IMG/VR virus record: IMGVR_UViG_3300012980_000004
Location: 1 to 64,000 of that record
DNA from: a virus
Reading direction: 5' to 3' (one strand)
Length of the DNA: 64,000 nucleotides
Below the pieces are notes generated by a model. It worked only from the letters and a program-made list of their open reading frames with translations, had not been told where the DNA came from and made no database searches. Made by a program: the position numbers and the translations under genes. Positions 21,572-58,976 of the stretch are shown here, piece by piece (within the stretch, counting starts at the first letter, position 1; each line of letters opens with the position of its first letter).

Positions 21572-21817
21572 ATGGACGGACACAACTGGTGGAGAGTGGG
21601 CGATTCGACAGTAACTATTACTGAGGGTGGGCGTATGCGCTCTAAACCTCAATCGCTTTGGCATTGCTCTCGTTGTAGTTCCGTCACTATTGTGAATAAC
21701 CCGCTCAATCCTGAATCTATCCAGGAGCTTTATGGAATTGAGCCCGAAGAGCTCGACGGAACCATAATTATGGAGCCGTTGATTTTGAGTTGCGACGAAA
21801 CATTAGTCAAAAAGTGA
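21572..21817 (+). CDS. Small CxxC protein, loosely related to the IMES-tail family
   Basis: ATG 21572 chosen so the CDS clears the tRNA. WHCSRCSS ... ILSCDETLVKK. Confidence 0.5.
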   Translation: MDGHNWWRVGDSTVTITEGGRMRSKPQSLWHCSRCSSVTIVNNPLNPESIQELYGIEPEELDGTIIMEPLILSCDETLVKK

Positions 21818-21829
21818 TGAAGTCATAAC

Positions 21830-21901
21830 GCCCATGTAGCTCAATGGTAGAGCATCGCTTTTGTAAAGCGGCGGTTGCGGGTTCAATTCCTGTCATGGGC
21901 T
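21830..21901 (+). tRNA. tRNA-Thr(TGT)
   Basis: Acceptor GCCCATG/CATGGGC. D-stem GCTC/GAGC. Loop TTTGTAA. T-loop TTCAATT. Confidence 0.85.
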
Positions 21902-21918
21902 CTACTGTAGAATAAATT

Positions 21919-22161
21919 ATGAATGACCCTGAGAAGATCCTGCCTCTAAACCCTAGTAAATATAAAGTCGAGCGCACTGATGGCTCGAGCGTTTCGGGTG
22001 GTAAACACGAAAGCTGTGAATACTTCGTCTTGGATTTAGTCCACGACAAGTTCTCGTATCAGGCGTTGAAAGCATACGCCGATGCATGCGAAGCCGAATA
22101 CCCGTTACTAGCGAGAGATCTGCGCTCAAAAATTGAAGCGCGACTCCTCAAGACTCAGTGA
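21919..22161 (+). CDS. Hypothetical protein (80 aa)
   Basis: ORF track. ...KYKVERTDGSSVSGGKHESCEYFVLDLVHDKFSYQALKAYADAC... Confidence 0.55.
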   Translation: MNDPEKILPLNPSKYKVERTDGSSVSGGKHESCEYFVLDLVHDKFSYQALKAYADACEAEYPLLARDLRSKIEARLLKTQ

Positions 22162-55476: not shown

Positions 55477-55548
55477 CTAAACTCACAGATCTCAGGCTGT
55501 CAAATTCAGTGCGTAAGTTCAGTGTCCTCGCTTGTAATGTAGCGGACG

Positions 55549-57801
55549 ATGGACATCATTTCTCAGCGCTTGCCGACTGATCTCAATCCTGCTCGTTTTT
55601 ATGCTCTAACAAAACTCCTGGCGGGAGTAACGGAGAGTGAAATCGTGGCATTCAATGCCATGGCAGCAAACGTAGAGGATCTAATCATAGACCTGGAGGA
55701 TAAGGTCATATCGATTGCTCGCACCAATAACTCGTTGATGCAAGAAGTCCGTCTAACCACACGACGCCGTCCAAGAGACGCCTTCGAGAGCGATGATTTC
55801 GGGCTCGAAGACCTTCGTCAGACGGCGAGCATGACCGGTTATTCCATGGTCGTGTTCCATGTTCTTGAAGAGCTTTATAAAGCATATCAAGATATTTATG
55901 GAGTCCTTCAGGACTTGCGACCCGGGACCCTCATGCTCTCAGGTACGGGCTTCGATATTCGTGAGTTGAATCCTTCCACAATTCAGATGCTGGCCTTTGA
56001 GATCCAGCTCAATAAAGGTGTGGTCGATAAATTCATCGGTTCGCTTATCCGAACGAGCGCGCTCAAGAAGCGTATTCATATGTCGGCTGAGAACATCACG
56101 AAGATGATGGATCAGTATATTCAGACGCTCACTCACCGTCACACGGTCGAAGGTATCAAGATCCATGGGGATCCGATTTCGACTGACATTGCGATTTCTC
56201 TCTATGAGAACATCGACGCTCATGGAGAGATCCAGGACGGTAAGAAGCCGGATGAACTATCTGCATACTCCCTGCGCAAGGCTCAGATCATTTGCGAAGG
56301 CATCAAGCAGGGAGAGCTTCGCAATTTCGTCCGCGATCCGAAATCTCTTTGCACTACCGCTGAATCACATCTCAGAGGGATGTGGGATGTTGCGCACAAG
56401 CTCGAGCAGATGATGGATGATCGTATTGATGAATTTTATACGATCATTGATCAGCGCAGGCCCAACAACCGAAAGGTCTCAGACCAAGAATTCAGTCTGT
56501 CTTTGCACACTATTCGAGAAGATCTCGACCCACTTGCTGTGCGATACAAGGAGAAATCGGTTCTCCTGACCTCAGAAGAACGATTCAATCTCCATTTCCA
56601 GAACGAGACGTTGGCCGAAGTATCGAGGCTCGTTCGAGAGTATTCGAAGGACTCCAAGAAGCTCGTCGATTACGTCTTGAACCGAAAGCTCGAGCTTCGC
56701 AACTACTTCCAGGATGAAAACTCGTTTTACGTCTGCAAGATCGGTTCAGGTAATCCATTCCTTGGGAGTGCTCCCGGAGAGCTCACGGTAGTTCCGGGGA
56801 CTCGTCCAAATGTCGTGCTGGATGAAATTATTGGGTCCGGATTCGCCGAGGTCAAAGATTTCATTAAGACCATCGAATCGAGCTCCAAATGGGCCGATCT
56901 CTTTTTGGCTACTTCGCCCAGCAAGACGACGGATAAGGCGAACGTGCTGCTCATCGGGCCAATGGGATGCGGCAAGACGGAAATCATGCGAGCAGTGGGC
57001 GGAGACCGGAAGTCGATCGGTATCTTCGCTCAGGGTTCGGACTTCCTGACTTGCTGGAAGGGCGAGGCAGAGAAGAACCCGAAGCGTTTGTTTGAGGCTG
57101 GCCTCAAACTCCAGAAGGAATCACGCAAGCACGTGCATTTCCTCATTGACGAGATCGATTCGGTTCTCAACGACGAAAAAGGAATCGGAAGCACGAATCT
57201 GACGCTCGAGTTCCAGATCCTCATGGATGGAGTGGTCCATTATCCGCATTTGAGTGTGTGGGGAGCAACCAACTCGCCTGAGCGTATTCCGATGCCGATG
57301 ATTCGACGCTTCAGCAAGGTCTTGGTTGTGGGCGAGCTCGATCAATCAGCTCGAGTGAAGCTGTTCAATCAGTTTCTCTCTTATCTGCCTCTTAGGTCCG
57401 ACTCTGCCTTCTTGAACTCAACGGAACAGGTATCGAAGTCGGTCGAAAAAGGTGCCCAGAAACTCGAGGGAGCTACTGGAGATGTCATTCGAAAGGTAGT
57501 GGATCATATTTGGCGAACCAAGATGACTTGGTTTGTCCAAAACCACAACGCGGAGGCTCAGGAGCTTCTCGATAGTCTCAACGATGGTCAGAAGTTCCAA
57601 CTTTCGGACTTCAACGAAGCGAAGCGAATCGCCTTCAAAGAGAAGCTCTCGAAATATATGGTTGTCAGCCCGGAGGATATCGAGAAGTCAGTGGATATTC
57701 ATCTGACGAACATCGCTGTCCACAACGAGATCGAGACCGCTAAGGAGACCTATGCGAGAGCCAAGAAATTCTTGAATTCTCTTGCTTCCGGAGAGGTGTG
57801 A
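55549..57801 (+). CDS. AAA+ ATPase with large N-terminal region (750 aa)
   Basis: VLLIGPMGCGKTEIMRA (Walker A), VHFLIDEIDS (Walker B), VWGATNSPERIPMPMIRRF. Confidence 0.85.
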   Translation: MDIISQRLPTDLNPARFYALTKLLAGVTESEIVAFNAMAANVEDLIIDLEDKVISIARTNNSLMQEVRLTTRRRPRDAFESDDFGLEDLRQTASMTGYSMVVFHVLEELYKAYQDIYGVLQDLRPGTLMLSGTGFDIRELNPSTIQMLAFEIQLNKGVVDKFIGSLIRTSALKKRIHMSAENITKMMDQYIQTLTHRHTVEGIKIHGDPISTDIAISLYENIDAHGEIQDGKKPDELSAYSLRKAQIICEGIKQGELRNFVRDPKSLCTTAESHLRGMWDVAHKLEQMMDDRIDEFYTIIDQRRPNNRKVSDQEFSLSLHTIREDLDPLAVRYKEKSVLLTSEERFNLHFQNETLAEVSRLVREYSKDSKKLVDYVLNRKLELRNYFQDENSFYVCKIGSGNPFLGSAPGELTVVPGTRPNVVLDEIIGSGFAEVKDFIKTIESSSKWADLFLATSPSKTTDKANVLLIGPMGCGKTEIMRAVGGDRKSIGIFAQGSDFLTCWKGEAEKNPKRLFEAGLKLQKESRKHVHFLIDEIDSVLNDEKGIGSTNLTLEFQILMDGVVHYPHLSVWGATNSPERIPMPMIRRFSKVLVVGELDQSARVKLFNQFLSYLPLRSDSAFLNSTEQVSKSVEKGAQKLEGATGDVIRKVVDHIWRTKMTWFVQNHNAEAQELLDSLNDGQKFQLSDFNEAKRIAFKEKLSKYMVVSPEDIEKSVDIHLTNIAVHNEIETAKETYARAKKFLNSLASGEV

Positions 57802-58188
57802 TTGGGGGCTGCGAGAAATAAATCCATTGTTCTTGGCTGGCCTCCCGGTTTCATAAATAATCCCGGCCGGAAGGCTGGAAAGTCTCAACCCTCTAAAGTC
57901 GTCAATGATCTCGATGAGTCTATCCGGCTTCTCAAAACCGGATGCAGAAAGTTCACTAAGCAGAAAAGACGCGATAGGATCTGGTTAGTTATCGATCACT
58001 CTCCTCATTGGAGAAGGCAAACAATGCCGCACCGGTATTCTGCTATTAGTTGGCCAGTCAAAACTGGTTATCCATCCTGTTGGGCTCGAGTGGGTTGGAT
58101 TGTAAATTCAGTCAGGTTCACGTCAAGAAGGCTTGCTCATCAAGAAGCCCAAAAATTACGAGGAATCTCAGAAATTATGGACGTTTAG
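57802..58188 (+). CDS. Hypothetical basic protein, open in-frame directly after the AAA+ TGA
   Basis: No ATG before residue 75. A TTG at the first codon has GGAGAGG 5 nt upstream. Ends ...RGISEIMDV. Confidence 0.4.
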   Translation: MGAARNKSIVLGWPPGFINNPGRKAGKSQPSKVVNDLDESIRLLKTGCRKFTKQKRRDRIWLVIDHSPHWRRQTMPHRYSAISWPVKTGYPSCWARVGWIVNSVRFTSRRLAHQEAQKLRGISEIMDV

Positions 58189-58196
58189 AGTATGTC

Positions 58197-58976
58197 ATGG
58201 ATGACGAGGAAGATTTCCGCATTAAGGTTCGGCCTACCCCAAAGCCGAAGACCAAAGATGTTCCATGGAGCCCCAAGCTCGTAGAGAGGGTGCGGAATAT
58301 TATTCTGACGTCTACGGATGACTATGTCCTCAAGGACGAGATAGCCAAGAAGCTACTCGCTCCGATTCATGATATTGGGCATTGTTTTTCTATTTTGGCC
58401 CGAGAGAGACTTCTAGAAGTTCGGCCTGTCCCTACCGATGAGATCGTTCGCGTGAACGGGGTTCTGGTTCATTGGGAAAACGGCAAATGGATAGAAGGGC
58501 GGGCTTCGATAGACCACTTGTTTATCGCTAAGCCACGACGGGGCATACGAAAGCGTTATGACACGCGCCAAGTAACAAGCAATCAGGAGCGAGCGAACAA
58601 GCGAGAGCGGGCGAAGTATTTGCGCAAGAATCCGCCTGTGGAGTCTAAATGGAACGGCCTGGCACATTTCATTGTCCGTGGAACCAAAGACTTCATTCGA
58701 GCCGCTCAGAAAGCAGGGCTCCCGGAAAACCCTGTTGCAGACTGGGCATGTTCGGGATGTCAAAGAATATTCCCGTACACTGAAACTTACTGCATCAAAT
58801 GCCAAAAGGGACGATTTCCGAAAGAGGAATGGGCTCCCGTCGTGGAAACTCCGAAGCCAACGTGTGCGCGTTGCGGCGGTATTGTTAAGATTCGTATGCG
58901 GCACGGGAAGAAATCCCCAGACCATGGTCTGGGGAAATGCAATATTTCCATGGTCGAAAAGATAATGGCAGACTGA
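58197..58976 (+). CDS. Protein with C-terminal zinc-ribbon/IMES-like module (paralogous to the 36267..36746 C-terminus)
   Basis: CSGCQ...CIKCQ...TCARCGGIVKIRMRHGKKSPDHGLGKCNISMVEKIMAD. Confidence 0.65.
   Translation: MDDEEDFRIKVRPTPKPKTKDVPWSPKLVERVRNIILTSTDDYVLKDEIAKKLLAPIHDIGHCFSILARERLLEVRPVPTDEIVRVNGVLVHWENGKWIEGRASIDHLFIAKPRRGIRKRYDTRQVTSNQERANKRERAKYLRKNPPVESKWNGLAHFIVRGTKDFIRAAQKAGLPENPVADWACSGCQRIFPYTETYCIKCQKGRFPKEEWAPVVETPKPTCARCGGIVKIRMRHGKKSPDHGLGKCNISMVEKIMAD

Follow-up and report, generated by a model that had tools for sequence, protein, structure and literature searches.

A putative zinc-stapled mini-domain family and a C-terminal tag on unrelated ORFan proteins of huge environmental phages

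Short terminal peptides that address many different proteins to one partner are known from several systems. The eukaryotic C-terminal signals PTS1 (-SKL, bound by Pex5) and -EEVD of Hsp70/Hsp90 (bound by TPR co-chaperones) are of the carboxylate-clamp type, and F-box and SOCS-box proteins as well as polymorphic effector arsenals are families in which a constant dock is joined to variable heads. The internal proteins of phage T4 have in common only a capsid-targeting sequence (CTS) and belong to a hyperplastic accessory region (PMC3012670); the prohead proteases of T4 and of giant phages cleave after Glu, at (L/I)-X-E or (A/S/G)-X-E (PMC5694885). Here we analysed a stretch of 64,000 nt (the window; positions 1 to 64,000 of IMG/VR virus record IMGVR_UViG_3300012980_000004) in which small open reading frames (ORFs) dispersed between positions 21,572 and 58,976 end in a common C-terminal tail. 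As judged from the sequences, the window holds a new, putatively zinc-stapled mini-domain family together with a C-terminal tag that is also found on unrelated ORFans, rather than a partnership of tRNAs and small ORFs. Our favoured reading, in which our confidence is evenly balanced, is that the portable tail of this zinc family serves as a recognition tag for one common, lineage-specific partner.

The tail resembles the T4 CTS in that a short terminal peptide is the sole common element of unrelated, fast-evolving small proteins. The CTS contains an (L/I)-X-E site for the Glu-specific prohead protease, a site that (I/V)-M-E↓S of the tail would also fit. In contrast, the T4 signal is N-terminal, 10–20 residues long and removed after targeting, and T4 has few internal-protein genes, whereas at least 13 tagged genes lie in the 64 kb studied here and about 25 follow one another in a relative. 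With the carboxylate-clamp signals the tail shares an obligate chain end, many unrelated carriers and an information content set by the last 3–5 residues and their context; unlike PTS1 and -EEVD, it appears to be a 12-residue amphipathic acidic helix and not a tripeptide. One conserved module with diversified bodies, tandem duplication and lineage specificity are features in common with F-box, SOCS-box and effector families, a comparison that is purely architectural and involves no sequence or structural relation.

A small-protein family with one His and three Cys

The motif [IV]M[EK][STA]-stop ends 7 of the 851 six-frame ORFs of at least 40 amino acids (aa) in the window, compared with 0.12 expected from the internal frequency of the motif and 0.02 from mononucleotide shuffles; the excess over 0.12 is therefore not due to chance. 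Of the nine places where [IV]M[EK][STA] occurs in the translated window, seven are chain ends. When scored with a 12-residue tail matrix trained exclusively on sequences from outside the window, 13 window ORF ends reached 11.6–23.0 bits, above all 57,807 internal 12-mers (maximum 11.4). These ends belong to ORFs of the zinc family and to ORFs 58197, 23222, 37981, 38311, 27000, 34003 and 14703 (named by their lower coordinate). All ORFs and tails quoted in the original prediction, which had been made from the window alone, are present where it placed them. Its list of members mixed true family members with proteins that have only the tail (23222, 37981 and 38311) and one non-member (28400), and it overlooked the tail-bearing ORFs 27000–27344, 34003–34518 (−) and 14703–15182.

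Eight ORFs of the window encode members of a new small-protein family, termed HCCC here, and two partial modules of the family are fused to larger proteins. The members are 58–113 aa long and follow the pattern M-x(1-3)-H-x-W ... W-x-C-x-x-C-G ... P ... C-D-E-x-ϕ-ϕ-x-x-ϕ-M-E-S-stop (ϕ, hydrophobic residue). Pairwise similarity among the window copies was undetectable save for the C-termini of 36267 and 58197, and in leave-one-out profile searches against 1,267 ORFs, five of nine candidates came first (E ≤ 0.004) and a further two came second. An exhaustive profile search of 1.84 billion protein representatives yielded about 25 external whole-profile matches of 67–113 aa. IMG/VR, metagenomes and cellular genomes were also searched with back-translated DNA patterns of the tail, which recovered true HCCC members in IMG/VR contigs of 111–436 kb and 66 members in 51 metagenome loci, often in co-oriented tandem arrays of up to six genes with overlapping stop and start codons. 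All true matches came from viral or metagenome contigs, the largest of 445 kb; across 185,579 cellular genomes the tail pattern gave 11 matches (10 in Rhizobium and one in a metagenome-assembled genome), none of which was an ORF end or an HCCC member. The family is thus restricted to a lineage of environmental huge phages. As an independent test of membership, a hidden Markov model (HMM) built from 93 sequences outside the window matched eight window ORFs, with E values from 1e-14 to 1.5e-3. The external profile search and this HMM bear out the claim that small CxxC proteins of the window form a family with a conserved helix at the C-terminus, and the family has not been described before.

Scans of the window ORFs and 32 members with Pfam, PHROGs, NCBIfam and PADLOC returned nothing above cut-offs, the zinc-ribbon models of Pfam matching single members only, below their curated cut-offs. 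A word-indexed homology search with the window paralogues as queries retrieved only the window's own proteins, and 29 sequences added few; tblastn of member P0042 against GenBank phages gave no match, and no description of the family was found in the literature.

In 100 non-redundant members, the His (96%), Trp (95%), first and second Cys (99% and 100%), Pro (97%) and last Cys (99%) are nearly invariant. They lie in the blocks M-x(1-3)-H-x-W, aromatic-x-C-x-[RKN]-C-G, [DK]-P and the C-terminal [DST]-C-[DE]-E-x-ϕ-[VI]-x-x-[VI]-M-E-S-stop. In at least 80% of members the chain ends exactly 11 residues after the last Cys, and the positions before the final Ser are [V/I] in 93%, Met in 73% and Glu in 72%. 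The two intervening loops, of 11–39 and 19–50 residues, vary widely in sequence and charge, and net charge spans −15 to +10. The family would constitute a compact natural scaffold of about 70 aa with two anchors, two hypervariable loops and more than 100 natural variants.

Among the window members, ORF 21572 (21572–21817, +; 81 aa) matches the external-only HMM at E 1.2e-14. It lies 2 nt after a tRNA-Glu gene and 12 nt before a tRNA-Thr gene, has a truncated tail (...SCDETLVKK) and belongs to a subfamily that is widely conserved, second loop included, with the orthologue-like matches P0011, P0024, P0040 and P0042. ORF 22148 (22148–22411, −; 87 aa; HMM E 9.9e-9) ends in ...DCDVEMIRYITES (20.3 bits) and is called as a gene in eight public assemblies. 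Members are further encoded at 26758–27000 (+; 80 aa; HMM E 4.8e-8; tail ...DCQEHIIRQVNET, 14.4 bits), at 31001–31234 (+; 77 aa; HMM E 5.8e-6; hhalign 94%; canonical tail ...DCKESRLIVVRKIMES, 21.1 bits), where the start is 13 nt past a tRNA-Glu gene, at 39816–40028 (+; 70 aa, beginning MHEW; HMM E 2.4e-8; tail 18.9 bits), where the start codon and the RuvB stop codon share 1 nt, and at 48854–49111 (+; 85 aa; HMM E 5.4e-9; tail ...SCPEFSALRIMES, 16.1 bits), between tRNA-like elements at 48774–48848 and 49128–49196.

Two members are weaker. ORF 30000 (30000–30245, +; 81 aa), flanked by two copies of a tRNA-like RNA, is divergent, with HMM E 2.9e-4, hhalign 43% and the degenerate tail ...DCKEARLFNVCLAVHEA. 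ORF 31808 (31808–32110, −) matches from CxxC to the tail only (HMM E 1.5e-3; hhalign 95%; tail 21.2 bits). Its start is uncertain (ATG at 32110 or TTG at 32035), its 5′ part is antisense to a PDDEXK-like gene at 31963–32427 and the public gene caller omits it; it may be a remnant. The 63-aa CxxC ORF at 28400–28591 (+), listed as a member in the original prediction, is not supported as one (HMM E 1.6; hhalign 2.2%; tail −6.9 bits; leave-one-out rank 18).

The two fused modules are found in a 159-aa protein (36267–36746, +; HMM E 0.046; hhalign 58% as a single sequence), which has a winged-helix-like N-terminal part (FtsK_gamma-like match at E 0.007, below the Pfam cut-off) and a degenerate tail, and in a 259-aa protein (58197–58976, +; hhalign 68%) with the tail ...KCNISMVEKIMAD (13.5 bits), for which the word-indexed search found no homologues outside this phage. 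The C-terminal 40 aa of 36267 read CGRCG...H...H...C-DLSMVRVIQDY and are related to the CxxC-to-tail half of HCCC. The two C-termini match each other at pairwise E 2e-9 and 1e-7, and the pair matches the CxxC-to-tail half of HCCC at 93% (E 3.5e-7) in profile–profile comparison and borderline (0.05) with the external HMM. The shared module (36630–36746 and 58860–58976) has the ligand spacing C-x2-C-x9-H-x6-H-x4-C. C-x2-C-x9-H is the pattern of Ros/MucR fingers, and the likeness goes no further than this spacing; the ROS_MUCR model of Pfam gave no match to either module at E ≤ 0.01.

The structure of the 39816 protein was predicted by AlphaFold2 from a 32-sequence alignment with a predicted local distance difference test score (pLDDT) of 85.2, compared with 65 when only the nine window paralogues were supplied. 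The model contains three short strands and a C-terminal helix (residues 59–69) that starts at the invariant Cys59. Foldseek found no significant neighbour of this model in the PDB (best E 1.8, template modelling score ≤ 0.36) or in BFVD (best E 0.62). The His and the three Cys residues are predicted to bind one zinc ion, and this putative site would staple the N-terminus, the knuckle and the tail helix together, making the domain a compact scaffold with a pair of variable loops. The domain had been proposed to be a zinc-ribbon scaffold. It does not fit a classical zinc ribbon, in which two CxxC/CxxH knuckles, each with two ligands, are borne by two beta hairpins; only one CxxC is conserved here, a second being absent, and the invariant residues are H, CxxC and C. 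The W-x-C-x-x-C-G knuckle, placed on a beta hairpin, is like that of zinc ribbons and rubredoxin, whereas the N-terminal His and the helix-capping Cys would supply the other ligands in place of a second knuckle. An ATCUN-like N-terminal metal site was also considered and dropped, the His position relative to Met being variable and residue 2 usually large.

The ligand set of three Cys and one His resembles those of Streptomyces RbpA and of C1 domains. The zinc site of S. coelicolor RbpA is of the 3Cys-1His type, the best PDB sequence match of the family profile is Streptomyces RbpA (E 0.005 over 43 columns, W-x-C-x-x-C-G...P), and one related contig encodes a sigma-70 factor near HCCC members. 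These points would suit a role as RbpA-like regulators with RNA polymerase or a sigma factor as binding partner, which we regard as very improbable: the PDB match is confined to the knuckle, the order of ligands differs, the Pfam RbpA model (core domain, basic linker and sigma-interaction domain) matched none of 32 members at E ≤ 0.1 and Foldseek gave no significant neighbour. The charge range of the family also speaks against a single conserved surface for nucleic acid or polymerase.

The tail on unrelated proteins of related phages

The window (GC content 49.6%) is part of a huge phage genome, since the contig on which its proteins are recorded spans 393,220 bp and a 436-kb relative, IMG/VR contig 3300032782_000001, is syntenic with it. 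Its DNA is 99.9–100% identical in eight public assemblies, mostly from soil metagenomes, which leaves no usable population variation for a ratio of nonsynonymous to synonymous changes (dN/dS). The sole annotated relative is the uncultured Virus Rctr197k, with 66% DNA identity over one vWA-domain gene and a compact tRNA array; no tail-bearing ORF was found within the 34 kb examined there. The 436-kb contig is the closer relative.

The tail has the 12-residue consensus [S/T/C/D]-x-[D/E]-E-x-ϕ-ϕ-x-x-[V/I]-M-E-S-COOH. Across the metagenome loci (290 kb), its strict 4-mer ends 76 ORFs, compared with 1.2 expected, and 40 of these 76 are not HCCC members; in the window and in these loci, 73–78% of the 4-mer occurrences are at the extreme C-terminus. 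Window and loci together yielded 92 distinct tagged proteins, 52 of them HCCC and 38 others falling into 36 BLAST-unrelated clusters. Among the tagged non-members are winged-helix-like proteins, zinc fingers of a second type, a finger of the CxxCxGxG type, at least three proteins whose hydrophobic segments look membrane-like and ORFans of up to 276 aa, and a Pfam domain was detected in none. The densest example is an island in the 436-kb relative (L015, 667–9535) of about 25 consecutive, translationally coupled plus-strand genes of 56–155 aa, nearly all of which end in the tail or a variant (VMES, VHES, VMNS, VMRS or IMTA); more tagged genes were seen over at least six other loci of this relative. 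Syntenic positions in related phages carry different tagged genes. A general DNA pattern of the tail gave 12 matches in 2.9 million IMG/VR contigs, 10 of them in the 436-kb contig and the other two in contigs of 257 and 427 kb, and the tag marks a narrow lineage of huge phages.

The codons of the tail vary synonymously, with GAG 47 times and GAA 33 times (41% of Glu codons), all six Ser codons and seven Ile/Val codons in use; selection therefore acts on the peptide and not on a DNA or RNA signal. We give next to no credence to the notion that the motif is a nucleotide-level artefact (a Shine–Dalgarno sequence, an overlapping start or a DNA repeat) or that the ORFs are non-genic, even though ATGGAG contains GGAG, TCA-TGA creates an overlapping ATG with TGA as the stop in 62 of 80 tails, and a crude codon-usage score, at a GC of 50%, does not clearly separate these ORFs from background. 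Against such an origin, synonymous sites are free, most window tails are followed by no gene within the next 10 nt, the 12 residues are conserved with helical periodicity, conservation of the H, W, C and P positions spans the entire ORF in more than 100 homologues, and public gene callers predict these ORFs.

Three window proteins lack the H-x-W/CxxC body and behave like negative controls in hhalign. The Cys-rich 78-aa protein at 23222–23458 (+; tail 18.3 bits; hhalign 1.2%) ends in ...ECSYEERIAWSVMKS. The 72-aa protein at 37981–38199 (+) has the best tail of the window (23.0 bits; the hhalign alignment covers the tail only) on a second zinc-finger type, C-x4-C ... R-C-x-x-H ... EECIIAGVMET, with external look-alikes of the form CxxC...ARCxxH...EY(I/V)(I/V)xx(I/V)MES. 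The 72-aa protein at 38311–38529 (+; end ...VPTEKVIQKIMES, 18.1 bits; 11 tail columns aligned by hhalign) has no zinc ligand at all, yet its chain ends in ...PTEKVIQKIMES. Tails are also carried by three proteins without a Pfam domain: a 114-aa protein with two CxxC pairs (27000–27344, +; ...SDEGQVEAVHKS, 13.0 bits), a 171-aa ORFan (34003–34518, −; ...NMAVIMAVQES, 13.0 bits) and a 159-aa ORFan (14703–15182, +; ...LEKLALVQEVMAL, 11.6 bits), the last of which lies outside both the tRNA region and the 21572–58976 interval.

The suggestion that the tail is a docking peptide or a shared structural element fits these data: the Cys that opens it in the zinc family is one of four invariant putative metal ligands, and it is found on dozens of unrelated proteins. 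Could it be purely structural, the slowest-evolving helix of a shared fold that descends from one tandemly duplicating ancestor and has no common partner? The tandem arrays, co-oriented and overlapping at their stop and start codons, are what birth-and-death evolution would lead one to expect, the first helix residue in the zinc family is the invariant Cys, and the helix is predicted at high confidence within the domain. We nonetheless judge this rather unlikely. The tail occurs on different architectures and sizes (membrane-like proteins, the CxxCxGxG-type finger, winged-helix-like proteins and ORFans of 150–276 aa), 38311 keeps a perfect tail despite the loss of all zinc ligands, and a structural role leaves unexplained why the chain ends right after M-E-S in at least 80% of members.

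tRNA genes, tRNA-like RNAs and neighbouring genes

ARAGORN identified 42 tRNA genes in the window, all on the plus strand between 17.9 and 55.5 kb, and Infernal added a few more tRNA-like elements. Most of the small genes had been described as lying immediately beside a tRNA gene. This is true for about half of them and is not specific to the family: within the tRNA region, a tRNA or tRNA-like element is the direct neighbour of 4 of 8 HCCC genes and of 36 of 59 others. Among external members, 2 of 66 are within 500 nt of a tRNA, and the HCCC/tail clusters L010, L013 and L015 contain no tRNA. Because adjacency is no higher than for other genes and is rare in external members, the proximity is incidental; tRNAs and tagged genes populate the same accessory region. 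The further proposal that tRNA-plus-small-ORF pairs are mobile units could draw on four members that start 2–13 nt past the 3′ end of a tRNA or tRNA-like element, on a family gene content that differs among related phages and on an HCCC member that follows the orthologue of 15996–16922 in the 436-kb relative and is absent from the window. The adjacency counts and the tRNA-free clusters argue against it, direct repeats in the region are limited to the tRNA sequences and none flanks the tRNA–ORF pairs. Nothing suggests such mobility, which we consider exceedingly improbable, and the finding corrects a tempting but wrong link of these genes to tRNAs.

Many ORFs of the tRNA region start 2–16 nt past a tRNA 3′ end (21569/21572, 29996/30000, 48848/48854, 30987/31001, 47586/47594 and others; tRNA end/ORF start), leaving too little space for a separate Shine–Dalgarno sequence. 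Provided that the array is transcribed as one unit, maturation of the tRNAs would set free near-leaderless mRNAs, a parallel to the 'tRNA punctuation' of mitochondria.

The region also contains an unannotated family of tRNA-like RNAs of about 125–137 nt, with plus-strand copies at 29302–29438, 29591–29722, 29868–29996 and 30269–30403 and five copies in L047 (9421–10321). In each, the acceptor stem has 7 bp and the loop of the anticodon-like arm 7 nt; a D-arm hairpin and a canonical T-arm are also present. The middle triplet of the loop differs from copy to copy (GTA, TTC, CAC and TTG), and the position of the variable arm is occupied by a conserved structured insert of about 55–60 nt, GGYATCGCAYCTCG-hairpin-CAAAYCCCGCGGTTCYTACAAGC. 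A covariance model built from three copies found the fourth window copy (75 bits) and the five tandem copies in the 436-kb relative (76–97 bits); pairing holds in 97.4% of cells, and both sides have changed in 22 of 30 pairs, with slid controls at 36–58%. In RNA libraries these RNAs are covered about 20 times as deeply as their flanks, and one 3′ end falls where an acceptor stem ends. They are called neither by ARAGORN in its default mode nor by Rfam at gathering threshold, ARAGORN -i reports one copy as an intron-containing tRNA-Arg, and no description of them was found in the literature. Further elements missed by ARAGORN lie at 48774–48848, 49128–49196 and 49904–49986. The first of these has a tRNA fold with a 6-bp D-stem and the anticodon loop CUUAUAA (UAU), the tRNA-Sec model fitting best (25 bits), and two others reach the gathering score of the Rfam tRNA model. 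Isolated T-arm-like matches occur near 19050, 36167, 37502, 40278, 50098 and 52925.

The region is contained in three probable-RNA runs. At position 29783, the wobble A of tRNA-Arg(ACG) (29751–29822), A-to-G was recorded in RNA at word depths of 1189 of 1390 and 73.9 of 73.9; a DNA run had zero A-to-G at this position. The libraries are thus truly RNA, as the change is present in them and absent from the DNA run. It is the signature of A34-to-inosine editing, and the phage tRNA is expressed and modified. The family ORFs are covered in the RNA libraries at contig level, at the general level of the region, which is compatible with their transcription and not decisive.

Other genes of the window include a 629-aa protein with a C-terminal vWA domain (23546–25435), the sole gene with DNA similarity to Rctr197k. 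A Ro60-like role was considered for it, as it sits in the region of tRNAs and tRNA-like RNAs; a TROVE domain was not detected. The gene group at 27672–29259 is suggestive of a ubiquitin-like conjugation module, with a JAB/MPN-like protein (27672–28088; HSHPGG motif, Pfam Prok-JAB under cut-off), a 90-aa protein (28128–28400), the 63-aa CxxC ORF 28400–28591 and a ThiF/E1-like protein (28681–29259; Pfam ThiF E 1.4e-20); the syntenic region of Rctr197k also has a ThiF-like gene. RuvB is encoded at 38881–39816 and an ADP-ribosylglycohydrolase at 40694–41635. Collagen-like Gly-X-Y repeat proteins, one of them very large, are encoded at 9208–13890 (−) and 42819–44306 (+). By eye, the ORF at 59320–60159 resembles a DNA adenine methylase and several window ORFs resemble HNH endonucleases.

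Candidate readers of the tail

If the tail is a recognition tag, as we favour, its helix together with the free carboxylate would be read by one common lineage-specific partner, and the tagged bodies would supply diverse, probably host-directed activities. As candidate partner we would place first the prohead core or the Glu-specific protease that matures it. In that case the tag would correspond, at the C-terminus, to the T4 CTS on polymorphic internal proteins, and (I/V)-M-E↓S matches the published prohead protease motifs (PMC5694885) at the level of sequence compatibility only. Several points weigh against our reading. Cleavage after Glu would take off one Ser only, known capsid-targeting sequences are N-terminal, the phage tag being strictly C-terminal, and no fewer than three of the tagged proteins have the look of membrane proteins, for which a cytoplasmic reader is a better fit than capsid packaging. 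In addition, the RNA data are at contig level and show the presence of the region in RNA libraries, not the translation of the ORFs.

The partner of second preference would be an AAA+ unfoldase or protease, for which the phage itself encodes a candidate. The 750-aa protein at 55549–57801 has an AAA domain of the classical clade, closest to the Cdc48/p97/VAT unfoldases (E 5e-26), and a long N-terminal region without a recognised domain; its gene is directly upstream of the tail-bearing 58197–58976. Terminal tags such as ssrA are the usual means of substrate selection by AAA+ unfoldases. Conceivably, the tail is a C-terminal degron or adaptor tag for such a machine (the Cdc48-like protein, ClpXP, Lon or FtsH), whose recognition of the free C-terminus would lead to the timed removal of early proteins or the delivery of host targets for unfolding. 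The strict location of the motif at the extreme C-terminus, its presence on soluble and membrane-like proteins alike and the phage-encoded AAA ATPase would all agree with this. We hold it to be unlikely, as the tail ends in Glu-Ser, whereas known bacterial C-degrons end in non-polar residues (for example LAA-COOH), and no protease domain was found beside the AAA protein.

Returning to the recognition tag, it may, as we tentatively put forward at somewhat less than even confidence, amount to a virus-encoded protein-addressing code, with a function like that of the T4 CTS or of PTS1, by which soil phages of about 400 kb would route dozens of unrelated ORFan effectors to one destination, the expanded, zinc-stapled family of binders with its two hypervariable loops among them. 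These proteins might be sent to the prohead for co-injection, or else to a phage AAA+ unfoldase or compartment. Carried by more than 10% of the genes in the region, the tag offers a handle on the ORFans of huge phages: it defines a functional class from sequence alone and predicts a single reader protein. Should it prove to be a packaging or sorting signal, it would be, as far as we found, the first such C-terminal code described in phages and would be usable for cargo loading.

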